Below are positions 25,943 through 60,363 of a stretch of DNA of 64,000 nt, in pieces. The stretch is taken from positions 6,307 through 70,306 of the forward strand of contig CAZJKG010000002.1 in NCBI GenBank assembly GCA_964546795.1, given 5' to 3'. A program made the translations under genes and the position numbers. The stretch's first letter is position 1, and each line of letters begins with the position of its first letter. Below the pieces are notes generated by a model. That model saw nothing but the letters and a program-made list of their open reading frames with translations. It was not told where the DNA came from and searched no databases. Source of the DNA: an uncultured Candidatus Saccharibacteria bacterium. Lineage in GTDB: Bacteria > Patescibacteriota > Minisyncoccia > Phycocordibacterales > Phycocordibacteraceae.

Positions 25943-26209
25943 TTATTCGAAAGGGTTATACTTCACGCCCTCGTATGGGTTGATCTTCACGTCATCGAGA
26001 GGATTGGCCGATACGCCGCTTAGAGGATTTTCGTCGGCAATGTTTGATTCAACAAGGGGAACCGGTGTCACTTTCGTTCCTGCCACATACCCTAATGGGA
26101 TGCCGATGACAAGACCGACAACGATGCCGATAAGCACGAAAAGATAAGGCGGTTTTGGTTGGTCCATATGCTTTTCATTATACGGGGTTATACCCGGAGC
26201 ACTTTCCAT
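25943..26209 (-). CDS. Small membrane protein (88 aa), hypothetical
   Basis: Single TM helix 'LFVLIGIVVGLVIGIPLGYVAG'. Starts 2 bp after the stop of the Cys-rich protein gene. Confidence 0.4.
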   Translation of the reverse strand: MESAPGITPYNEKHMDQPKPPYLFVLIGIVVGLVIGIPLGYVAGTKVTPVPLVESNIADENPLSGVSANPLDDVKINPYEGVKYNPFE

Positions 26210-26243
26210 AGGTGTTGATAGCTATATCTCTCAACCTTTATTT

Positions 26244-26453
26244 CTAACTACGTATGTAAGCGATTAGGAGAAACACCAGTAATGAAATAATGCAGAGAAT
26301 GGCGAGAGCGACAACATAGACAAGCGCGATAGCCGGCATGGCGATGATGCCGCCCACGCCCGCAGAGGACAGATGGTAGAAAACGTAGGCCACAATGCCA
26401 ACGGAACCAAGAATGAAACCGGCAAGATGATAGAGAAAAATAGTATGCTTTTT
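26244..26453 (-). CDS. Small two-TM membrane protein (hypothetical)
   Basis: The track ORF 26244–26564 overlaps the upstream gene by 77 nt. The internal Met 'MKKHTIFLYHLAGFILG...' at ~26453 removes the overlap. Low-GC island region. Confidence 0.35.
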   Translation of the reverse strand, partial: KKHTIFLYHLAGFILGSVGIVAYVFYHLSSAGVGGIIAMPAIALVYVVALAILCIISLLVFLLIAYIRS

Positions 26454-26487
26454 CATTTTAGAAATCTCTTCGTCAGAGGAATTGAAA

Positions 26488-27120
26488 TTATATCTTTCGT
26501 ATTCGTTTCCCACTGGCGTTCGTAAAGTAATCGCTTTTCTTCCCATGGTTAACTTTTCCGCCATGAGTATCAGCGGTGCGATGAAAAAACTCGTTTCCAG
26601 CGGTTAGTGAATTTAGATTCCCTTTGATACGTTTCTGATGGCGACCTGTTGTTAAGTGAGTTGTTGGTTGATATCCAAATTCCGCATACATGTCATAAGC
26701 AATTTCCCGTGAATCCAAACCAATCCGTTGTTGTTCTTCCAGAATACGTGCCTTTCTTTTTGACAACTGCTCTGTCTTCTTTTGAATTGGGGGTGCAATA
26801 GATTTTAATGCCGACTCATTGATTGTTCCCTCTTCGATCTGTTGCAACGCTTGTTGAACCTGATCTTCAAATTTGATAATTTCTTGCAGCTTTCCCTCTA
26901 TGCGCCAAAATTCAGCTTCCTTTTCATTCAGCACGTCACGTTCGTGCAGATTCAGTGAGCGAGATTTCATCTCAGATGTCTGTTGATATACGTCTTGTTG
27001 ATGCTCTTTTAATTGAGTTCTCAGCTCCGATAATTCTTCTGCTCTTTGCCAGAGCAATGGTTCATAGGTTGTTTTTAGTGATTCCAGGTTTTTCTTCTGT
27101 TGTGAGCTTTCTATCGACAT
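26488..27120 (-). CDS. Coiled-coil hypothetical protein (210 aa) in the low-GC island
   Basis: Q/E/K-rich heptad-like sequence, AT-rich codon usage, and an upstream RBS 'GGAGGAGG'. Preceded by copy R1 of the duplicated element. Confidence 0.45.
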   Translation of the reverse strand: MSIESSQQKKNLESLKTTYEPLLWQRAEELSELRTQLKEHQQDVYQQTSEMKSRSLNLHERDVLNEKEAEFWRIEGKLQEIIKFEDQVQQALQQIEEGTINESALKSIAPPIQKKTEQLSKRKARILEEQQRIGLDSREIAYDMYAEFGYQPTTHLTTGRHQKRIKGNLNSLTAGNEFFHRTADTHGGKVNHGKKSDYFTNASGKRIRKI

Positions 27121-27181
27121 TGGTCAATTATACCAAACAAGTTCAATCCTCCTCCACTGGCTGACCTCATCGGATTCATGC

Positions 27182-27248
27182 ATTATACCGTTAAGCCCCC
27201 ATTGAGTTTTCTGGCGGCTTTTTTGAACTCAAATCGACGCACTTCGGA
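27182..27248 (-). promoter_or_regulatory. Island promoter/operator element, copy R1 (contains a perfect -10 TATAAT on the minus strand)
   Basis: About 85% identical over its first 33 bp to copy R2 at 28211–28267, followed by a second conserved block after a short diverged stretch ('attataccgtYaagcYccMattgagttttctRg ... aaatcgac...tcgga'). It sits upstream of the coiled-coil gene. Confidence 0.45.
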
Positions 27249-27288
27249 ATGGGGTCGAAATTAGACAAACTAGACACTTTTAACCATT

Positions 27289-28203
27289 TTAATAATCCTT
27301 CCAAAGTTTGTCCTGATAAGGATCTACAATTTTCCCCTTACTATTCCGGACTTCAAAATGGAGATGCGGTCCGACACCCCCATAACCCCCTGAGTAAGCA
27401 ATGATCTGTCCTTCTTTCACGGCGACCGATTTAGTGTAGTCAGTAAGTTGAGCTTCAATTTCATCTACCAATTTTGTGCAGTGCAAGAGCCAGGAAACAT
27501 AGCTATTGGCGTGTTTGATATAGAAAGAGTGCCATCCTTCCCAAGCAGTAGGATTATTGAGCCCAAGATTCTTTAGTGCCCACGTTCTGTTAACTCCATC
27601 AATCGGATCAGTTTGTGCTTTAAATAAGTCCCCGTCTGCAGGGGCTATAAGTTGCGTTCCTGGAATGCACTTAAAGTCATAACCCGCATGGCCATCATAA
27701 TTTAGATAAAACGTTGGCCCATATTTGTCTCCTGCACCTGGTGCACCTACATAATTAATTTCCCCGGCAGAGAAAAATGGAGATGGAACTTTCTTTGCAT
27801 ACCCTAAAGCACTCGTTCCGGCACAAGGATCCCCGTCTCCGACTTCTCCATTAAAAGATCGTGTCTTTTGATCTTTCGCATTCAAGCCCCACGGCTTATT
27901 GCTACTTGGATCAATCGCTGTGCCCATATGGTCAATCACGGCAGTGATTTTTGCGGTACGGGACGTAACGGGCCTTCCATTTGCGTCATTGAGTTTGACT
28001 GGACAAATGAGGAATCCGGTGCTCGTTGGTACGACTGGAGCGGGAGCCGGTTCTGGCGCTGGCGGCACAATCACTGGAGGTGGTACAGGTTGCGGAGTCG
28101 GAGGTAGATTAATCGGGGCCGGTACAGGTTGAACCTTTGATTTAGAAAGGTTCGTAAGGAAAGTCTTAAGTACCTCTCCCAAGATTTTGAGAAACGACTG
28201 CAT
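27289..28203 (-). CDS. M23 family metallopeptidase (LytM-like peptidoglycan endopeptidase) with a Pro-rich N-terminal linker
   Basis: C-terminal 'GPHLHFEVRNSKGKIVDPY' is the M23 HxH zinc-site signature. Pro-rich 'PVPAPINLPPTPQPVPPPVIVPPAPEPAPAPVVP'. The track ORF starts at TTG 28230; the first ATG is at ~28203. The TATAAT of R2 is only ~7 nt upstream, so the transcript may be leaderless. Confidence 0.8.
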   Translation of the reverse strand: MQSFLKILGEVLKTFLTNLSKSKVQPVPAPINLPPTPQPVPPPVIVPPAPEPAPAPVVPTSTGFLICPVKLNDANGRPVTSRTAKITAVIDHMGTAIDPSSNKPWGLNAKDQKTRSFNGEVGDGDPCAGTSALGYAKKVPSPFFSAGEINYVGAPGAGDKYGPTFYLNYDGHAGYDFKCIPGTQLIAPADGDLFKAQTDPIDGVNRTWALKNLGLNNPTAWEGWHSFYIKHANSYVSWLLHCTKLVDEIEAQLTDYTKSVAVKEGQIIAYSGGYGGVGPHLHFEVRNSKGKIVDPYQDKLWKDY

Positions 28204-28210
28204 ATCTACT

Positions 28211-28267
28211 ATTATACCGTCAAGCTCCAATTGAGTTTTCTAGAACCTTAAATCGACCCTCCTCGGA
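28211..28267 (-). promoter_or_regulatory. Island promoter/operator element, copy R2
   Basis: Duplicate of R1. The minus strand reads ...AAAACTCAATTGGAGCTTGACGGTATAAT immediately 5' of the M23 peptidase ATG. Confidence 0.45.
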
Positions 28268-28309
28268 TAGTTTGTTGACTCGCAATTACCCGTTAGTACT
28301 ACAATGATC

Positions 28310-29227
28310 TTAGATCATAATCTTTTCTGAACGAATGAGATGATCCATCTTCTGATAAGCATGGATAGCAGTTGTGTGGTCTTTCTTTTTCATCACCTTA
28401 GCTATTTGTGGGAAAGATAATTTCGCATTTCTCCTTAAGAAATATATGGCGAGATGTCTAGGAAAAACAAGATTCGCCATTCTTCTGCTTCCCAATAAAT
28501 CGTCGATTGGTATAGCGTATGCCTTACTTATACTTGCAATGATATCTTTAACTTCTACCAGTTCGGACGGATCGATTGGTATTGGTTTTTTAGGGGGTGC
28601 CGGAACTGCCCCATTGAGTTTGAGTATTGTTGTATTTAGAATTTGTCTTATTCGCTCCCGCGTGATGCCAAATTTCCCTGCAATTACTTCATAAGTCTTG
28701 CCTTCGAGTCTTAGTCTCATTATTTCATTTTCTCTTTCATTCATTCTGATGTTGCCCGTAGCACGAGCTGGAGCTGAATTGTAAATAAAAGCTGGATTCC
28801 CTTTCTCTAGCACACCAAAGAAGTCATCGATGATAGAAAATTCTGTAAAAGCTGTAATTTTCTGTCCATCGTCATAAACAATTTTCATTTCATTATCAAA
28901 ATCATTTGATGAGATTTGCTTCAACAAATCGTGTAGAACTTCATTTCTTTTGTTGCGATAACGGTCAAATAGTCCTCTCTTTTCTTTGGGTAACCACTCG
29001 CTATCAAATAATAATTTAATTAATTCGGAAAGATTGTACTGAACGATTCTCTTTCTCAAAGCAGCTAAAATAGCTGGGTCTGCATCTCTTATCGATAGCG
29101 ACAATTTAGTTTCGACAAACAATTTTATTAGACTTTCTATGTAGGCACTTTGTAATACAAAAGCTTCGAGAAGAAGGTTCTTCTGTCCATAGTTTTCTAT
29201 TCTTTCTTTTAGGTCATCTTTCCTCAT
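28310..29227 (-). CDS. DNA-binding regulator fusing sigma-70 region 4 (HTH) to a DnaA C-terminal (domain IV) DNA-binding domain
   Basis: 'ERENEIMRLRLEGKTYEVIAGKFGITRERIRQI' matches sigma-70 region 4. 'VKDIIASISKAYAIPIDDLLGSRRMANLVFPRHLAIYFLRRNAKLSFPQIAKVMKKKDHTTAIHAYQKM' matches DnaA domain IV, including the DHTT(V/A)(I/L)HA signature. There is no AAA+ domain. About 38% GC. Confidence 0.7.
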   Translation of the reverse strand: MRKDDLKERIENYGQKNLLLEAFVLQSAYIESLIKLFVETKLSLSIRDADPAILAALRKRIVQYNLSELIKLLFDSEWLPKEKRGLFDRYRNKRNEVLHDLLKQISSNDFDNEMKIVYDDGQKITAFTEFSIIDDFFGVLEKGNPAFIYNSAPARATGNIRMNERENEIMRLRLEGKTYEVIAGKFGITRERIRQILNTTILKLNGAVPAPPKKPIPIDPSELVEVKDIIASISKAYAIPIDDLLGSRRMANLVFPRHLAIYFLRRNAKLSFPQIAKVMKKKDHTTAIHAYQKMDHLIRSEKIMI

Positions 29228-29232
29228 TTTTG

Positions 29233-29303
29233 CTGCCCGACAGGGATTCGGACCCCAATTAACGGCTTCAAAGGCCGCTGTCCTACCATTAGACGATCGG
29301 GCA
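29233..29303 (-). tRNA. tRNA-Gln (anticodon TTG), with an atypical T-arm
   Basis: Minus strand: TGCCCGA-TC-GTCT-AATGGTA-GGAC-A-GCGGC-CTTTGAA-GCCGT-TAAT-TGGGG-TCCGAAT-CCCTG-TCGGGCA-G. Perfect 7-bp acceptor stem. The T-loop reads TCCGAAT, with C where the near-invariant U55 is expected. The T-stem needs two G·U pairs. It lies immediately 5' of the low-GC island. Confidence 0.55.
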
Positions 29304-49260: not shown

Positions 49261-49334
49261 GGGCCTATAGTTTAGTGGTAAAACAGTGGTCTCCAAAACC
49301 ACCGTCCCAGGTTCGAGTCCTGGTGGGCCCGCCA
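49261..49334 (+). tRNA. tRNA-Trp (anticodon CCA), CCA encoded
   Basis: GGGCCTA-TA-GTTT-AGTGGTA-AAAC-A-GTGGT-CTCCAAA-ACCAC-CGTC-CCAGG-TTCGAGT-CCTGG-TGGGCCC-G-CCA. Confidence 0.85.
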
Positions 49335-54454: not shown

Positions 54455-54558
54455 GAGTTGATTCTACACGAGGGTATGATATTTGACTTCTTTCCAACTG
54501 AAAGATATCTTCAACTATAGAAAAGCAAACTGAACACTAAACTAAAGGAGGTTTCAAG

Positions 54559-54792
54559 GTGAACAACAATAAAAAAATTGTCCATGGTCTAGCGCGTGGC
54601 CTACCTTTGTGTATGTTCTCCGAGAAACTTCCATCAAAATGGCCGGAAGGACATGTCTGTACTTCTATAGTCTCTGCAATACAAAGAAAGGATATCACCT
54701 GCCCCGCATGCCTAAGAGAATACGCATCACAATCCAATAAACGTCGTCCGCCTTTCCACGAGGTCGAAACATCCGTGAACATCGGCGATTAA
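54559..54792 (+). CDS. Small hypothetical protein (77 aa) with CxxC pairs
   Basis: 'CMFSEK...HVCTS...CPACLREY' may form a zinc ribbon. Followed by a terminator. Coding status uncertain. Confidence 0.3.
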   Translation: MNNNKKIVHGLARGLPLCMFSEKLPSKWPEGHVCTSIVSAIQRKDITCPACLREYASQSNKRRPPFHEVETSVNIGD

Positions 54793-54807
54793 AGGACCTT
54801 ATGGCGA

Positions 54808-54843
54808 ACCCGCCAGCAGAAACCTGCTTCGGTGGGTTTTTGT
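54808..54843 (+). terminator. Rho-independent terminator (bulged stem followed by UUUUUGUU)
   Basis: CCCGCCAGCAG-aaac-CTGCTTCGGTGGG followed by 'tttttgtt'. Confidence 0.5.
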
Positions 54844-54973
54844 TATCTATCTATCCACTTCTAAAAAATACTTGACAGGGTAGAAATATGCTAACTTACA
54901 CGTGTTGTTCATTTTGGAGGGAAATGCGATGGATCATCAACGGCTTCGCACGCCGCCCAGCTATGGGGATCCG

Positions 54974-55007
54974 TAGACGCGGCGGGGGCTCCTGGTGGAT
55001 CCGGGAG
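54974..55007 (+). terminator. Rho-independent terminator/attenuator-like hairpin upstream of infB
   Basis: GGGCTCC-tggtggatccg-GGAGCCC followed by TTTTTTT. It lies inside a short upstream ORF that starts at 54924 with an RBS 'GGAGGG'. Confidence 0.6.
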
Positions 55008-55092
55008 CCCTTTTTTTATAGCTCTTATTTTTATTTGATCTGCTGCTTTGCAAATTGCAATTAGGTCATTTTTGTGATGAAATAGAGGCATT

Positions 55093-56562
55093 ATGGCGCG
55101 GGTCCCAAGACCGCCCGTCATTGCGGTGATGGGCCATATAGACCATGGTAAGTCATCCCTCCTGGATTACATCCGGAAGGCGAATATCGTGGCGGGCGAG
55201 GCGGGAGGCATCACACAGCATGTCGCCGCATACATCGCGCTCCACAACGGCCGACCGGTCACGTTCCTTGACACTCCCGGTCACGAGGCATTCAAGGCAC
55301 TGCGCACCCGGGGCGCGGCGGCCGCGGATATTGCTATTCTCGTTGTTGCGGCGGACGAGGGCGTGATGCCACAAACGCTCGATGCACTCGCGGCCATCAC
55401 TGAAGCAAAGATTCCTTATATTGTGGCGATCACCAAGATAGACAAAAATAACGCCGATATCGGCCACACCAAGAATTCGCTTATCGAACATGGCATATTC
55501 ATAGAAGGTATGGGTGGCGATATTGCATTTGCACTTGTCTCTTCCAAGACCGGCGAAGGTATACCGGAACTTCTTGACTTGGTCCTTCTTTCTGCGGACC
55601 TTGTGGAACTCACCGCCGACCCGCTCGCGAGTGCGACTGGCTTCATACTTGAATCCACGCAGGATGCCAAGCGCGGAGCATCAGCGACGCTCATCATAAA
55701 AGACGGGACACTGACACTTGATGGCTTTGTTGTCGCTAGCGACGCGTTTGCCCCGATACGCTTCATAGAGGATTTCCGAGGCAAACGTGTGGAGACCGCA
55801 GGACCTTCGGAACCGGTGCGTATCTCTGGATTCAACAAACTGCCCTCGGCCGGTTCGCTTTTCAGCATCGCAAAGAATAAAAAGGAGGCAGAACTTCTTG
55901 CGAAAGAGCAGGCCAAAACGCTTGTGGCGACACCCGAACGCGCTGCGTCGATTGAGGGCATTACCGAACTTCCCCTTATCGTGAAGACAGACGTTGCTGG
56001 TTCAGTTGATGCAATTCAACATGAATTAAAGAAAATCACCCATGAGCGCGCTTCCATTCGCATCGTCTCTTCCGGCGTCGGCAGCGTCTCGGAAACCGAT
56101 GTCAAGACCGCATACGCTGCCGGCGGAGTTATCATTGCATTCAATGTGTCCATTGATCCCATCGCTAGTGAGCTCGCAGAGCGAGACCATATCAGCATCC
56201 TTTCTTTCTCCATTATTTACGAACTTGCTGAGAAAATAGCCGGACTCCTCGTTGGACGTGTTCCTGTTGTCGCCTCCGAGAAAGAACTTGGGCGCGCGAT
56301 GGTGCTGAAATCCTTCTCGTCAAGCGGAAAGAAACAAGTCCTCGGTGCGCGCTACGTCTCTGGTGTGCTCACCGTCGGAAATCGCATGAAAATACTTCGT
56401 CGCGAGGCAGAAATCGCGCGAGGCAGCATCACGAACCTCCAGCAGGCGCGCGCGGATGCCAAAGAGATAAAAACCGAGGGCGACTTTGGTATTGAGATCG
56501 AAGCGCGCGAGAATGCGACGTACGGCGACGAGATCATCGCCTTCGTCGTCACCGAATCATGA
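55093..56562 (+). CDS. infB: Translation initiation factor IF-2 (short form lacking the long N-terminal region)
   Basis: The G-domain starts at the N-terminus: 'PPVIAVMGHIDHGKSSLLD...FLDTPGHEAF...ITKID'. Then the beta-barrel domains II and C1/C2. 489 aa. Confidence 0.9.
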   Translation: MARVPRPPVIAVMGHIDHGKSSLLDYIRKANIVAGEAGGITQHVAAYIALHNGRPVTFLDTPGHEAFKALRTRGAAAADIAILVVAADEGVMPQTLDALAAITEAKIPYIVAITKIDKNNADIGHTKNSLIEHGIFIEGMGGDIAFALVSSKTGEGIPELLDLVLLSADLVELTADPLASATGFILESTQDAKRGASATLIIKDGTLTLDGFVVASDAFAPIRFIEDFRGKRVETAGPSEPVRISGFNKLPSAGSLFSIAKNKKEAELLAKEQAKTLVATPERAASIEGITELPLIVKTDVAGSVDAIQHELKKITHERASIRIVSSGVGSVSETDVKTAYAAGGVIIAFNVSIDPIASELAERDHISILSFSIIYELAEKIAGLLVGRVPVVASEKELGRAMVLKSFSSSGKKQVLGARYVSGVLTVGNRMKILRREAEIARGSITNLQQARADAKEIKTEGDFGIEIEARENATYGDEIIAFVVTES

Positions 56563-56885
56563 TTCACTCAGACAGAACGCGTAGCCCTCGTCGGCAGAGT
56601 AATCGCGCCGCCGAGATAGTCGCGCGCGAGGCCGCGCAATTTATCGCGCGCGAGGCCGGCACTGAATCCCTCATCACCGTCATACGTGCTGAGAGCGTAG
56701 CGCATGGTGAACGCATTATGATATTCGTGAGCGTCTTCCCTACGGAGAAAGCTCGCGCGGCGCTCGCATTCCTGGAGCGGCAGCGCGAGGCGTTCTCGAA
56801 TTATTTGAAATCCCACGCGCGGCTTCGTCTCCCACGCGTTGATTTTCTTCTTGATAACAACGAGACATCTCCATTAAATAATTAG
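56559..56885 (+). CDS. rbfA: Ribosome-binding factor A
   Basis: Sits directly downstream of infB, the conserved gene order. 'RRQSNRAAEIVAREAAQFIARE...LITVIRAESVAHGERIMIFVSV' fits the RbfA KH-like fold pattern. 108 aa. Confidence 0.6.
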   Translation: MIHSDRTRSPRRQSNRAAEIVAREAAQFIAREAGTESLITVIRAESVAHGERIMIFVSVFPTEKARAALAFLERQREAFSNYLKSHARLRLPRVDFLLDNNETSPLNN

Positions 56886-56911
56886 TTTGTAACTTTACAC
56901 ATATAGTTTCC

Positions 56912-57676
56912 TTGCAGTATATAACGTTACCACTTATACTGTATGACGTGGGAGTCAAATATTTTGTGAATGAAAAGTTCTTTGATGTGTGGGGTGATGA
57001 GATGGCATATGTGCTTGGTTATCTTTACGCGGACGGAAGTTTGGAGGACTCGCCACATATTCGGGGTAAGTATGTACGAGTGACAAGTACGGATCGGGAC
57101 AGGATTGAAATCATCCGGTCATTGCTCAAATCTGAACACACTATCGTCCGCGAAATTCAAGATGCTCGACGCAAACCTCGGTTCCTCTTGAGAATTGGAA
57201 ACAGTCAGCTGTTTGATGCTTTGATTAAAATCGGTATTACGCCCCATAAGTCATTGACTATGGAATTTCCGGTCGTGCCAAATCTCTATTTCGGATCGTT
57301 CTTGCGGGGATACTTCGATGGGGATGGTTGTGCTCATATAGACATTGTGCACGGAAAACCAAAACGTTTGCTTTCTATCTTTACAAGCGGCAGTAAGATA
57401 TTTCTTGAAGCACTCCATAAGCGTTTATCTAATGAGATCGGTCTCATCGGAAACGGTCTATACTCACACGGCAGCACTGCTGGTGCCTACCAACTACGTT
57501 ACTCCACTCGAGATAGTTTGCGGTTATTCAATTTCATGTATCCGCGAGGACTCAGTAAGAAGTTACATTTGCGAAGAAAATACGATATATTTATGCAGTA
57601 CCTTGAACTCAGGGGTATTTCGCGGGGTGAAATACCCCTTGTGTTGAATCAGAAAGGCCCGATGGTGAAGAGGTAA
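56912..57676 (+). CDS. LAGLIDADG-family homing endonuclease (two-motif, single-chain type), free-standing
   Basis: Two LAGLIDADG motifs, 'LGYLYADGS' and 'LRGYFDGDGC', spaced ~100 aa apart. AT-rich (~42% GC) relative to the flanks. The track ORF starts at TTG, so the start is uncertain. The 3' end overlaps the first ~20 nt of tRNA-Cys. Confidence 0.8.
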   Translation: MQYITLPLILYDVGVKYFVNEKFFDVWGDEMAYVLGYLYADGSLEDSPHIRGKYVRVTSTDRDRIEIIRSLLKSEHTIVREIQDARRKPRFLLRIGNSQLFDALIKIGITPHKSLTMEFPVVPNLYFGSFLRGYFDGDGCAHIDIVHGKPKRLLSIFTSGSKIFLEALHKRLSNEIGLIGNGLYSHGSTAGAYQLRYSTRDSLRLFNFMYPRGLSKKLHLRRKYDIFMQYLELRGISRGEIPLVLNQKGPMVKR

Positions 57677-57727
57677 CACATCGATCTGCAAAATCGACAT
57701 GCGCGGGTTCGATTCCCGCTCGGGCCT
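57656..57727 (+). tRNA. tRNA-Cys (anticodon GCA)
   Basis: GGCCCGA-TG-GTGA-AGAGGTA-ACAC-A-TCGAT-CTGCAAA-ATCGA-CATGC-GCGGG-TTCGATT-CCCGC-TCGGGCC-T. The D-arm has a short loop and one mismatch. Confidence 0.75.
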
Positions 57728-57757
57728 CATGCGCGAAAAGTTGTACTATAGAAAAAT

Positions 57758-57844
57758 GCCGAGGTGGCGGAATGGTAGACGTCAGAGACTTAAAATCTCT
57801 TGCTGCGTAAAAGTGGCGTGTGGGTTCGACTCCCACCCTCGGCA
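57758..57844 (+). tRNA. tRNA-Leu (anticodon TAA), long variable arm
   Basis: GCCGAGG-TG-GCGG-AATGGTAGA-CGTC-AGAGA-CTTAAAA-TCTCT-[TGCTGCGTAAAAGTGGCGT]-GTGGG-TTCGACT-CCCAC-CCTCGGC-A. Confidence 0.8.
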
Positions 57845-57850
57845 CAAAAC

Positions 57851-58678
57851 ATGCAAAAGAAGAGACATGTACGCATAGGAATTTTTGATTCCGGATTCGG
57901 AGGACTGCATATCTCGCGCTTTATAGTGAAAACCTTGCCGCAGTACGATTATGTATATGTAGGCGATACCGCTCGCGCTCCCTATGGGCACCGATCGCAG
58001 GAAACCATATACGCCTATACGAAACAAGGAGTGGAGTTTCTCTTCAGACATGGATGCGGAATTGTCATCATCGCCTGCAATACCTCATCAAGCGAAGCGC
58101 TCCGCATGGTGCAGCAGAAATATCTTAGGATGTCCGGCGCGAAGAAAAAAATACTCGGCGTGCTCATCCCCGCGGCGGAAGACGCTGTAGAAAAAACAAA
58201 AAATAAAAGGGTCGGCGTTATCGCGACGGAGGCGACCGTCGCATCCCGCGCATTCGTCCGCGAACTTACAAAACTCGACCCGAACGTGCAGGTATTCCAG
58301 AAGGCCTGTCCGCTATTAGTCCCGCTCATAGAGGCGGGAAAGCAGAACTCCAGAGAGACGAAGCTCGTGCTTGAAAAATATCTCCGCCCGCTCATTCGCA
58401 AGAAGATAGATGTGCTTATCCTCGGTTGTACGCATTACGGCATCGTAGAAAAGGAGATTCGCAGTATCGTCGGGCCGCATATCGCCCTCATATCCGAGGC
58501 CAAGATCGTACCGAAGAAATTAGAACAGTATCTGCGCAAGCACAGCGATATTGAAAAAACGTTCAGTAAGGGCTCGGGTATCCGTTTTTATTCAACCGAC
58601 CGTACCGACAGCTTCAGGGTTATCGGGAGCAGATTTTTCGGGAAAAAGATACGGGTTGAAAAAGCGACCCTGCAATAA
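57851..58678 (+). CDS. murI: Glutamate racemase
   Basis: 'IGIFDSGFGGLHISRFIVKTLPQYDYVYVGDTARAPYG' and 'IIACNTSSSEAL...LILGCTHY' with both catalytic Cys motifs. The track ORF starts at 57800 inside tRNA-Leu; the ATG at 57851 ('MQKKRHVRIG') is the likely start. Confidence 0.85.
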   Translation: MQKKRHVRIGIFDSGFGGLHISRFIVKTLPQYDYVYVGDTARAPYGHRSQETIYAYTKQGVEFLFRHGCGIVIIACNTSSSEALRMVQQKYLRMSGAKKKILGVLIPAAEDAVEKTKNKRVGVIATEATVASRAFVRELTKLDPNVQVFQKACPLLVPLIEAGKQNSRETKLVLEKYLRPLIRKKIDVLILGCTHYGIVEKEIRSIVGPHIALISEAKIVPKKLEQYLRKHSDIEKTFSKGSGIRFYSTDRTDSFRVIGSRFFGKKIRVEKATLQ

Positions 58679-58681
58679 ACG

Positions 58682-58766
58682 TGGTGCTGGGGAGAGGAAT
58701 CGAACCTCCAATGGATTGCTCCACATGGTCCTAAGCCATGCGCGTCTACCAATTTCGCCACCCCAG
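58682..58766 (-). tRNA. tRNA-Leu (anticodon TAG), CCA encoded
   Basis: Minus strand: GCTGGGG-TG-GCGA-AATTGGTAGA-CGCG-CATGG-CTTAGGA-CCATG-[TGGAGCAATCCATTG]-GAGG-TTCGATT-CCTC-TCCCCAGC-A-CCA. Confidence 0.8.
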
Positions 58767-58898
58767 CGCTTCCAAAGCATACTATGTTCTGCTATATTTT
58801 TCCTTACGTGCGCGCCTATATCTTCATCTTCCCAGATTCGATATAGCCGCTCGTTCGGAGAACAAGAATCCGAGAATGCATTCTCGTTTCCTCACTTC

Positions 58899-58971
58899 GC
58901 GCCTATAGCTCAGTTGGTAGAGCAGCTCCCTCTTAAGGAGACGGTCCCTGGTTCGAATCCAGGTAGGCGCA
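58899..58971 (+). tRNA. tRNA-Lys (anticodon CTT)
   Basis: GCGCCTA-TA-GCTC-AGTTGGTA-GAGC-A-GCTCC-CTCTTAA-GGAGA-CGGTC-CCTGG-TTCGAAT-CCAGG-TAGGCGC-A. Confidence 0.8.
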
Positions 58972-58973
58972 CC

Positions 58974-59001
58974 TTGACTTTCTAAAAGTTTCCTGTATTC
59001 T
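58974..59001 (+). promoter_or_regulatory. Putative sigma-70 promoter (TTGACT–16–TATTCT) immediately after tRNA-Lys
   Basis: Upstream of the SPFH-like gene. The RBS 'AAGGAGG' is 6 nt before the ATG at 59068. Confidence 0.4.
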
Positions 59002-59067
59002 GCAAGGCAGAAAACGGTTCGTTCCATCACCCATATTGATTAAAATCAAACAGAAGGAGGATGCTCT

Positions 59068-60363
59068 ATGTCGACAAAAGTGGTCGAAAATTGGCGCACA
59101 AACGCCAAAAAAGATCTCGAGGAAATGATAGTGAAATTGGACGAGGAGTTCGAAGCGGAAAAGAAAGAAATTAAGAAACAGAAGGCGAAGGATGCCTCAC
59201 TCTATGAACCAGCTGACCGGTATTACTGGGCTACAGTCGCGCTGTACGTCTTCACGCAAGTGATACTGGGGCTTCTTGTATCGCTTCCATTAACAACGGA
59301 AGTGGTGTCAATGGGAATTCCGGTCAACATTGGCGTGACAGCTCTACTGTTGCAAACCCTCCACTTCATCGGCTCCTTCCGCTCGATCAAAGTTGATGAT
59401 CTGGCTGGCTTCACCCTCTTCGGCCGACCGTGGTATGTTCCGAAACCGGGGCTCTATCTTGTCCCACTGTGGATCTTAAAAGTTATCCGAGCGAGTCGGA
59501 ATTACAAGGACAAACGTTTCCCTGGTCCAGCGGACAAAATCTTTCGGATTAGCTCAACGTTGCAGGATACTCGTGTGGGTGGTGATATTCCTCCTGAAGG
59601 CATGGTTCGCCCCATCTTCGTGATGACCGGGGAGCCGAAGTTAACCGAGGAAGATGAAAAGAAACTCAAAGATAACGGAGGAGCGAATCCTCTCGACCGG
59701 CAACTCTCGGCGGAGATAGCATATTTCGTTCGCTATCGCCCGGATCAGGAGTATGGCGGCATCTTCCGTATCGCCCGCAACCTTTCTGCACAGATCGGGG
59801 ATATTGATGAACGAATCTTGGACCTCGTGCAGGAACAGTCGGAACGCGATATGAAGGCCGTTCTCTCGCGTCATACGCCAGCAACGATCATCGAGAACTG
59901 GGACATCATCAACAAGGTCTTCGTTTTGAAACTTCGGTTGGCGGTCATGCGGCTCGGTATTGATGTTGATAAGAATGGCGGTGGACTCGACGACTTAAAC
60001 CTCAGTCATAAAACCAACGATGCGCAAGCAGAGGTGACACGAGAACAATTCAGAAAACATGCGACGATAACCAAGGCCGAAGCCGAAAAGATTAAACGCC
60101 AAAAAGAACGCGAAGGCGATGCTGCGGGAGAATTGGCGTGGCTTACCGCTGAGGCGGAGGGTCGTAAGAAAATGAAGGAGGCACTTAAGGTAAAGGGTGA
60201 TGCTGTTCTCGCTTCCGAATCCGTCCGCGGTATATTGGGTTCAACCGATGTGATTCTCGCAGGCGGTGAAGGTGGTATGAGAGACGTAATGACCTTCGTC
60301 AAGGGGGCTCAAAGCGTACTCAACTCTGGCCAGTCCAAACCTCAAACGGTGAAAGGAGCGTAG
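59068..60363 (+). CDS. SPFH/band-7 (stomatin/flotillin-like) domain membrane protein (tentative)
   Basis: N-terminal TM helices, then 'IKVDDLAGFTLFGRPWYVPKPGLYLVPLWILKVIRAS', which resembles the start of an SPFH domain. A long charged coiled-coil C-terminus follows. Confidence 0.45.
   Translation: MSTKVVENWRTNAKKDLEEMIVKLDEEFEAEKKEIKKQKAKDASLYEPADRYYWATVALYVFTQVILGLLVSLPLTTEVVSMGIPVNIGVTALLLQTLHFIGSFRSIKVDDLAGFTLFGRPWYVPKPGLYLVPLWILKVIRASRNYKDKRFPGPADKIFRISSTLQDTRVGGDIPPEGMVRPIFVMTGEPKLTEEDEKKLKDNGGANPLDRQLSAEIAYFVRYRPDQEYGGIFRIARNLSAQIGDIDERILDLVQEQSERDMKAVLSRHTPATIIENWDIINKVFVLKLRLAVMRLGIDVDKNGGGLDDLNLSHKTNDAQAEVTREQFRKHATITKAEAEKIKRQKEREGDAAGELAWLTAEAEGRKKMKEALKVKGDAVLASESVRGILGSTDVILAGGEGGMRDVMTFVKGAQSVLNSGQSKPQTVKGA

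Follow-up and report, generated by a model that had tools for sequence, protein, structure and literature searches.

The window analyzed here is a 64,000-nt stretch of contig CAZJKG010000002.1 from an uncultured Candidatus Saccharibacteria bacterium. Our subject is an AT-rich open reading frame (ORF) that encodes a LAGLIDADG endonuclease and lies between rbfA and the tRNA-Cys(GCA) gene, running into the tRNA. The original prediction, made from the letters of the window, described it as a free-standing homing endonuclease gene (HEG).

The endonuclease gene and its locus

In the ORF list, the longest frame between rbfA and tRNA-Cys begins with TTG and covers 56912..57676 (+, 254 aa). Database homologues (1251 found) are mostly 242 aa long, with their start aligned to the GTG at 56948, and the N-terminus of the family is conserved as MG[VIL]KY.VNE.FFD.W. 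The in-frame ATG that was to be looked for does exist, at 57002, but starting there would drop the invariant residues F11, F12 and W15, so GTG 56948 is the likely start codon. The protein contains the two LAGLIDADG motifs of the original prediction, LGYLYADGS and RGYFDGDGC, whose acidic residues (D29 and D126 in the 242-aa numbering) do not vary among 37 homologues; the same holds for the pairs D29/G30 and D126/G127.

A Pfam profile search matched PF14528 (LAGLIDADG_3) in two stretches of the protein (E 9e-13; 48.7 bits against a cut-off of 22.5 bits) instead of PF00961 or PF03161, the two families suggested earlier, neither of which matched at E <= 0.01. WhiA-type profiles did not match the window protein, and an NCBIfam search of it returned no meaningful family; PHROG 4645 (‘endonuclease’) was matched at 2.6e-36. 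The AlphaFold2 model (pLDDT 91, pTM 0.89) has two domains and the order of elements expected of the tandem alpha-beta-beta-alpha-beta-beta-alpha fold. The best 50 Foldseek matches in the PDB are all LAGLIDADG enzymes, maturases or intein endonuclease domains, among them I-Tsp061I, I-AniI, I-SceI, I-OnuI and I-DmoI; the archaeal intron enzyme I-Tsp061I leads the list, and I-Tsp061I (2DCH) and I-DmoI are the nearest solved sequences. In 29 pairs, dN/dS ranges from 0.04 to 0.18. Alignments and model together show that the enzyme is an intact LAGLIDADG nuclease of two domains, maintained by purifying selection.

The ORF has no stop codon of its own. It continues 18 nt into tRNA-Cys and terminates at a TAA in the D-loop (57674-57676), which gives an overlap of 21 nt and agrees with the ~20 nt first proposed. 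Its GC content (0.41-0.45) is low compared with rbfA just upstream (0.54-0.61) and with the window mean (0.51); the AT-rich patch is therefore real, while the ~58% GC once ascribed to the flanks holds for the immediate upstream flank only. A remark that truB or rpsO should stand at this position does not apply, as the native order in this lineage is infB-rbfA-tRNA-Cys-tRNA-Leu(TAA). In relatives lacking the HEG, the gap between rbfA and tRNA-Cys is ~15-100 nt. The spacer at 56886..56911 is kept only among close HEG-bearing (HEG+) relatives (TCTTTAYACA..GTTTCC; compared with loci L241, L246 and L248), and may be either the displaced native tRNA-Cys promoter or a clade-specific left edge of the inserted DNA.

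The original prediction also raised the possibility of an intron or intein remnant and of introns in the adjacent tRNA genes. Rfam searches gave no intron RNA family in 55000-60000 at E <= 1 (only the tRNAs and sub-threshold noise) and none in the whole window at gathering thresholds. The tRNA-Cys and tRNA-Leu genes are both intact and uninterrupted, and the ORF is free-standing with a promoter-like left end. A hairpin noted in the last codons is real, with 0/200 shuffles folding equally well, but it is not conserved beyond the nearest relative, which retains part of it; RNAalifold recovered no shared helix at this position among 10 relatives, and the hairpin is probably incidental. Features of the locus are listed in Table 1.

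Table 1. Coordinates of features at the rbfA to tRNA-Leu locus of the window.
Feature	Position	Strand	Description
rbfA	56559..56885	+	PF02033 RBFA E 5.7e-5, below gathering score; syntenic RbfA matches in related loci
Spacer, rbfA stop to left-end motif	56886..56911	+	-10-like TATAGT at 56902-56907
Left-end motif TTGCAG-TATATAACG-TTACCACTT-ATACT	56912..56940	+	promoter-like; proposed pseudo-target operator
LAGLIDADG homing endonuclease CDS	56948..57676	+	242 aa; GTG start (likely); TAA stop 57674-57676
Catalytic Asp codons	57032-57034 (D29); 57323-57325 (D126)	+	from alignment of 37 homologues
Box TACGATATATTT	57581..57592	+	within Y-D-I-F codons, 64-75 nt upstream of tRNA-Cys +1; putative internal promoter
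Hairpin	57610-57640	+	dG -22.7 kcal/mol, z -3.5; in last ORF codons
tRNA-Cys(GCA), intact	57656-57728	+	ARAGORN; Rfam tRNA 66.6 bits
tRNA-Leu(TAA)	57758..57845	+	downstream neighbour of tRNA-Cys, conserved in HEG+ and HEG-less loci

A mobile family with a single observed home

A scan of one genome per species found a relative of the gene in at least 416 species genomes, and gene context was surveyed in the best 80 of these. The 80 are metagenome-assembled genomes, labelled mostly as Patescibacteria, Paceibacterota, Kaiser-, Nomura-, Yanofsky-, Moran-, Falkow- or Magasanikbacteria; a few third-party assemblies are labelled differently but have an identical gene context. tRNA-Cys(GCA) adjoins the end of the ORF in all 77 loci whose contig reaches far enough. 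Counting these 77 loci and the window, the stop codon lies within tRNA-Cys in 54/78 and 3-27 nt upstream of it in the remainder, and conserved C-terminal peptides (GPMVKR, GPVAKKQRDGLQNRYARVRIPPGP...) are translated tRNA-Cys. Most HEG+ loci also retain infB-rbfA upstream and tRNA-Leu(TAA) downstream. This is a large family restricted to Patescibacteria (Paceibacteria-type bacteria of the candidate phyla radiation, CPR), and the 5' flank of tRNA-Cys is its sole observed home.

Two other kinds of vehicle were considered and rejected. Relatives in phages and IMG/VR are <=37% identical, and a tRNA follows the gene in only 1/80 of them, which speaks against phage carriage. A tRNA-targeting integrative element, marked by an integrase gene and by a direct repeat of the tRNA 3' end at its boundary, does not fit an insert of 0.75 kb that holds a single ORF, matches LAGLIDADG_3 only and sits at the 5' end of the tRNA. 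The sole tRNA-like repeat of the insert is a copy of internal loops, inverted in most loci.

To sample relatives blind to the endonuclease, we used the neighbouring InfB, which yielded 60 informative loci. In 55/60, rbfA is joined directly to tRNA-Cys, forming an empty site; these include L081, L082 and L083, whose InfB is 77-80% identical to that of the window. A full endonuclease gene is present in 2/60 loci, with a third (L106) ending at a contig edge, and at least 2/60 contain 3' remnants. The L130 remnant consists of the last 67 codons only, next to tRNA-Cys (E 1e-15), and L156 retains ~100 nt of the 3' end. Exact deletion boundaries could not be drawn from L004 and L156, as divergence is too great (~70% nucleotide identity).

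Across the 56 loci with both genes, HEG and InfB identities are barely correlated (Spearman 0.12, from pairwise identities). Discordant pairs occur in both directions, with HEG identities of 75-84% where InfB is 49-56% identical and, conversely, an HEG identity of 45% where InfB is 80% identical. The nearest relatives of the window diverge in step (HEG, 76-90%; InfB, 75-92%), and inheritance over this short range looks vertical.

HEG GC content is below that of the host in 74/74 loci (mean difference -10.4 ± 3.5 points) and tracks it closely (r 0.86, slope 0.87). A deficit that is present in every locus and follows the host indicates that the AT-rich patch is a constant property of the family and not the mark of a very recent arrival. 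These loci do not resemble those of an old domesticated gene carried by all relatives with host-like composition, which had been named as a possibility, since most relatives lack the gene and the deficit of ~10 points holds throughout. The suggestion of a mobile-element insertion gains support from the empty sites, the remnants, the constant insertion point and a HEG phylogeny unlike that of the host. By these comparisons the gene is shown to occur sporadically, to move horizontally over long range and to decay, and the pattern of invasion, vertical descent, decay and loss is, on the same evidence, the signature expected of homing endonuclease gene cycling.

tRNA-Cys loops, the left-end motif and a proposed homing cycle

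Family-wide conservation starts abruptly at TTGCAG (56912), the -35 element of a promoter-like layout in which 17 nt separate it from the -10 TATACT (56935-56940). Read on the opposite strand, the motif reproduces the anticodon loop (CTGCAAA) and D-loop (AAGTGGTAA) of tRNA-Cys at the identical 9-nt spacing, with the stem nucleotides between the loop copies swapped for AT-rich sequence. TTGCAG-TATA-N5-TTACCAC[CT]T occurs with <=2 mismatches in 48/78 HEG+ loci at a fixed distance from the start codon (chance expectation ~0.002 per locus, binomial estimate), and ~15 further loci have 3-5 mismatches at the same distance.

In every case the motif sits over the promoter region, 26-37 nt before the start codon; three arrangements and both orientations occur. 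The window represents the first, where the motif doubles as the -35 and is followed by the -10 and, 6-7 nt on (7 nt in the window itself), by the start codon, so the mRNA would be leaderless or nearly leaderless. In the second arrangement a TATAAT stands immediately before TGCAG, placing the motif between this -10 and the ATG start. In the third (L044, L047, L055 and L077) the motif is reversed (AGTGGTAA-N9-CTGCAA), stands 26 nt ahead of the start codon and contains the -10 in its AT-rich centre. The use of both orientations and three promoter contexts argues for a protein-binding site, and against a mere promoter or an antisense RNA. We infer that the promoter's copy of the two loops acts as an operator, which would keep expression low.

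A scan of the window for TTGCAG-N9-TTACCACTT with <=2 mismatches gave 3 matches against 0.04 expected: the motif itself, tRNA-Cys on the opposite strand (1 mismatch) and tRNA-Trp (2 mismatches). The tRNA-Cys segment at 57668-57691 (AAGAGGTAA-N9-CTGCAA) mirrors the left-end motif except for T17, which is A in its D-loop. The tRNA-Trp match lies at 49273-49296 on the minus strand (TTGGAG...TTACCACTA) and shows that the D-loop half is common to other tRNAs, with the anticodon half conferring specificity for Cys.

The tRNA-Cys genes themselves differ with HEG status. An exact AAGTGGTAA-N9-CTGCAA is found in 28/61 tRNA-Cys genes of HEG-less (HEG-) loci and in 2/80 of HEG+ loci (Fisher, 1.5e-10). 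Pairing every HEG+ locus with the HEG- locus closest to it by InfB gives 20 pairs in which the HEG+ tRNA has more mismatches, 4 with the same number and 4 with fewer (Wilcoxon, 6e-5). Within the clade of the window, HEG+ tRNAs have A or C at D-loop position 17 (alleles AAGAGGTAA, AAGCGGTAA, AAGAAGCAA, AAATAGGAA and similar), while the HEG-less loci L082, L083, L084, L086 and L087 have AAGTGGTAA, with T at that position. Exceptions in this clade are L002, which is HEG+ with a perfect match, the HEG- variants L081 and L088 (AAGTAGAAA), and the remnant locus L156, which is variant. The difference is statistical; a fixed diagnostic position separating HEG+ from HEG- tRNA-Cys genes was sought and does not exist.

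tRNA-Cys identity follows HEG identity when InfB is controlled for (partial r 0.22, permutation p 0.002), and is nearly independent of InfB when HEG is controlled for (partial r 0.06, p 0.17). L034 and L040 are an example, with InfB 56%, HEG 77% and tRNA-Cys 100% identical. Co-conversion of tRNA-Cys, as a flanking marker, with the HEG thus appears to have occurred, on correlative grounds.

Other peculiarities of these tRNAs were also seen. In tRNA-Cys genes the D-loop AAGTAG(C)TAA is almost invariably accompanied by a T-loop of TGCAA in place of TTCGA (alignment columns 19 and 59). This apparent G18-to-A / U55-to-G covariation, at near-universal positions, is found in 39/80 HEG+ and 12/61 HEG- genes, and both remnant loci (L130 and L156) show it. 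In two HEG-less close relatives (InfB 73-77%; L084, 5361-5434, and L086, 1422-1496) tRNA-Cys is inverted directly after rbfA and diverges from tRNA-Leu(TAA) over a 39-40-nt spacer; both have a perfect AAGTGGTAA-N9-CTGCAA.

The insert may also affect how tRNA-Cys is expressed. A promoter scan identified GTTACA-18-TATATT at 57562-57591, and within the clade of the window TACGNTATATTT is conserved at the nucleotide level, 70 nt before tRNA-Cys. The box at 57581..57592 shows no nucleotide change among 10 close loci or in the L156 remnant, even though the residue of its middle codon varies (D/A/G) between unchanged neighbouring codons. It is also present in L241, L246 and L248. In the close clade, to which the codon analysis was confined, the codons ATA, TAC and TTT of the box are each used in 9/9 cases, compared with 27%, 42% and 49% elsewhere in the same genes. 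We consider this box a putative internal promoter (-10 TATATT) that would restore transcription of tRNA-Cys.

The explanation we favor, and hold to be probable, is that a free-standing cassette of about 745-770 bp (~56912-57655, possibly from 56886), carrying a LAGLIDADG homing endonuclease, has inserted exactly at position +1 of tRNA-Cys, downstream of rbfA and the tRNA-Cys promoter region. For it we propose the following mechanism. Enzymes of this class make site-specific double-strand cuts in long targets of about 20 bp, and this one would cut tRNA-Cys loci that lack the HEG by recognizing the DNA of the D-loop and anticodon loop (AAGTGGTAA-N9-CTGCAA), a step that we put forward with some reserve. 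Repair from a HEG+ copy would then convert the locus and co-transfer a tRNA-Cys allele with a changed D-loop, amounting to intronless homing with a linked immune allele; here the arguments for and against seem to us evenly balanced. The AAGAGGTAA allele of the window and alleles of the AAGTAGCTAA type are expected to be poor substrates. The AT-centred copy of the recognition sequence over the cassette's own promoter could serve as an uncleavable operator for autorepression, as in I-TevI, which we suggest with the same reserve as the cleavage step.

We propose, more hesitantly, that the insertion parts the tRNA from its native promoter, and that tRNA-Cys would then depend on read-through transcription and/or on a promoter within the final 75 nt of the ORF. 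As the ORF stops only at the D-loop TAA, RNase P processing of such a co-transcript would strip the mRNA of its stop codon and, speculatively, may hold enzyme levels low. A wider synthesis is possible but somewhat doubtful: the enzyme would target the two most conserved loops of tRNA-Cys, its spread would put the tRNA itself under selection, HEG-linked alleles would escape through D-loop changes, including at G18 with a compensating change of the U55-to-G type, cassette and allele would move as a unit that throttles itself at a pseudo-tRNA operator, and the 5' flanks of tRNAs would be a general endonuclease niche.

Several observations weigh against parts of this explanation. The target is predicted only, and we infer it from the mirrored sequence and the allele association. 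The mirrored motif was spotted post hoc, and at the single-locus level its similarity is 15/26, with 81/300 shuffles as good; about 10 HEG+ loci have no recognizable left motif. The tRNA-Cys of the window departs from the proposed target at only 1/15 positions, and the perfect matches in the HEG+ loci L002 and L010 indicate that immunity by sequence is not absolute. HEG+ loci were collected by HEG similarity from GTDB genomes and HEG- loci by InfB similarity from JGI metagenomes, and the correction for phylogeny in the tests between them is rough. Since allele and HEG move together, part of the D-loop association may come from hitch-hiking, with no immunity involved. The internal box is confined to the clade of the window, and a -10-like box upstream of tRNA-Cys is weakly enriched in empty sites (17/61 against 7/61 in a control window). 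A sharply positioned -10, giving a leaderless tRNA, was rejected as a general rule for empty sites given this weak enrichment; it stands for L081-L083 and L142-type loci.

The strongest rival explanation retains the mobile cassette and moves its target to the insertion point, so that the site would span the -10/discriminator and the first ~11 nt of tRNA-Cys and would be destroyed by insertion; the left-end motif would then be a promoter only, and the D-loop differences hitch-hiking. The insertion at tRNA +1, identical in 77/77 loci, fits this well, as does the fact that the first 18 nt of tRNA-Cys are the same in the HEG+ window and in HEG- L081. The perfect internal sequence kept by L002 and L010 is explained too, and founder effects are possible given that the tRNA allele co-transfers with the HEG. 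We nevertheless find a target at the insertion point unlikely. In empty sites the sequence upstream of tRNA-Cys is unconserved and the -10 weakly positioned, and such a target leaves unexplained both the many distinct D-loop variants among HEG+ tRNAs and the exact tRNA-Cys loop nucleotides, at tRNA spacing, in both orientations and three promoter arrangements.

Far less probable is that the LAGLIDADG protein has been domesticated for a host role connected with tRNA-Cys, such as transcription control or the handling of pre-tRNA, and that its gene passes down vertically and has been lost many times. In favor of this are strong purifying selection, the intact ORF of every HEG+ species sampled, the strict tie to a single tRNA, a GC content that tracks the host and vertical inheritance among close relatives. 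The gene is absent, however, from 55/60 InfB-sampled relatives, whose tRNA-Cys seems normal; remnants exist, the phylogeny is discordant with that of the host, and GC is 10 points below the host everywhere. The catalytic Asp residues, lost in WhiA and in plant/fungal maturase-type LAGLIDADG derivatives, are retained.

It is scarcely credible that the gene is left over from a group I intron or an intein formerly present in tRNA-Cys or tRNA-Leu: LAGLIDADG genes are usually borne by such elements and CPR rRNA genes are rich in them (PMC11270868), but the Rfam searches found no intron family, both tRNAs are complete with normal anticodon loops, and the ORF has no intein flanks, its own conserved start, a promoter-like left end and the same free-standing layout in 77 loci.

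Other tRNA-flank genes and comparison with known systems

Further ORFs were found at tRNA 5' ends in the sampled loci. Distant LAGLIDADG_3 paralogues in L108 (~7645-8310), L061 (3681-4350) and L058 (639-1680) abut tRNA-Leu(TAG), tRNA-Leu(TAA) and tRNA-Ser(CGA), respectively, and two of these ORFs run into the tRNA. HNH_3 ORFs of ~175 aa in L092, L141 and L062 end 44-50 nt inside tRNA-Leu(TAA), and similar N-termini stand beside an inverted tRNA-Cys in L094 and L096. A mirrored pseudo-tRNA motif was also sought upstream of other tRNA-abutting endonuclease ORFs and rejected, the single-locus tests not being significant there, nor for the window alone. On these gene arrangements, the 5' flanks of tRNAs look like a general homing-endonuclease niche in these genomes. 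Another family of ~240-aa ORFs abuts tRNA-Lys(CTT) (L079, L080, L150 and L082), tRNA-Met (L049) and tRNA-Gly (L073). It has an N-terminal helix-turn-helix (HTH), which is all that Pfam detects, and a conserved ‘LYWAEG’, and may be an unrecognized single-motif LAGLIDADG-like endonuclease.

Two other AT-rich regions of the window were recorded. A 638-nt spacer at 54455-55092 (GC 0.40-0.46) separates a class-V aminotransferase gene (minus strand) from infB and has no ORF >=82 aa and no Rfam family at gathering scores. A block at 26000-29230 (GC 0.41-0.44) holds three minus-strand genes, encoding a sigma-70 region 4 + DnaA C-terminal HTH protein, an M23 peptidase and a coiled-coil protein. The block starts 5 nt away from tRNA-Gln (29232-29303), on the 3' side of that gene; there is no integrase among its three genes, and it could be an island.

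Most known homing endonucleases come from introns, inteins and phage genomes. The genes described here make up a large and coherent LAGLIDADG family, free-standing on chromosomes, whose one exact home is in front of an essential single-copy tRNA. They offer a compact natural system for studying how a selfish nuclease survives without a splicing element, the parts of which would be a promoter laid over a pseudo-target, a borrowed stop codon, possibly a replacement tRNA promoter, and a linked resistant allele. The target prediction, AAGTGGTAA-N9-CTGCAA, is directly testable, and the hundreds of natural variants are possible new meganuclease scaffolds. Some odd features of CPR tRNAs may stem from conflict with mobile nucleases; if the general niche is real, tRNA 5' flanks would be an undescribed home of homing endonucleases in CPR bacteria, driving oddities of tRNA sequence. 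Annotators of these genomes should not dismiss an AT-rich ORF as a mis-call because it extends into a tRNA gene.

NCBI names some members ‘LAGLIDADG family homing endonuclease’; the gene is thus already annotated, while its biology is undescribed in the literature that we found. Full-text literature searches found no description of a tRNA-Cys-linked free-standing LAGLIDADG family, and a tRNA-linked free-standing family is not in PMC11270868, where ‘tRNA’ has 0 occurrences. What has been described in CPR bacteria is LAGLIDADG genes inside rRNA insertion sequences (PMC11270868, PMC11809585), evidence that homing endonucleases flourish in such bacteria. Those genes share the host group and enzyme superfamily with the window gene, but lie in 16S and 23S genes, mostly in group I/II introns, and are mostly single-domain LAGLIDADG_1 or _2; LAGLIDADG_3 is reported in 16S insertions only (PMC11270868). 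Like I-Tsp061I (PDB 2DCH) and I-DmoI, the window protein belongs to PF14528 and has two LAGLIDADG helices with catalytic acidic residues in a protein of ~190-240 aa. Those enzymes are ~20% identical to it, are intron-encoded and target archaeal rRNA genes, whereas the window gene is free-standing and linked to tRNA-Cys.

T4 SegB is free-standing within a tRNA gene cluster, recognizes the DNA of the T-psi-C loop and spreads flanking tRNA genes by co-conversion (PMC2330249). As in SegB and the other Seg/Mob enzymes of intronless homing, the HEG described here lies between genes and not in an intron or intein. SegB, however, is a GIY-YIG enzyme of a phage, while the window gene encodes a LAGLIDADG enzyme on a bacterial chromosome. 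Unlike SegB, it is tied to a single tRNA (Cys), with its position fixed at tRNA +1 and its ORF ending inside the tRNA, and it is known from sequence alone. The operator idea likewise has a precedent in phage T4: the I-TevI operator resembles the homing site, overlaps the enzyme's own promoter and lacks the requirements for cleavage (PMC2988022), a layout shared by the left-end motif. I-TevI is an intron-encoded GIY-YIG enzyme for which binding and repression have been demonstrated; for the window enzyme both are predicted from the mirrored loops of the tRNA that it adjoins.

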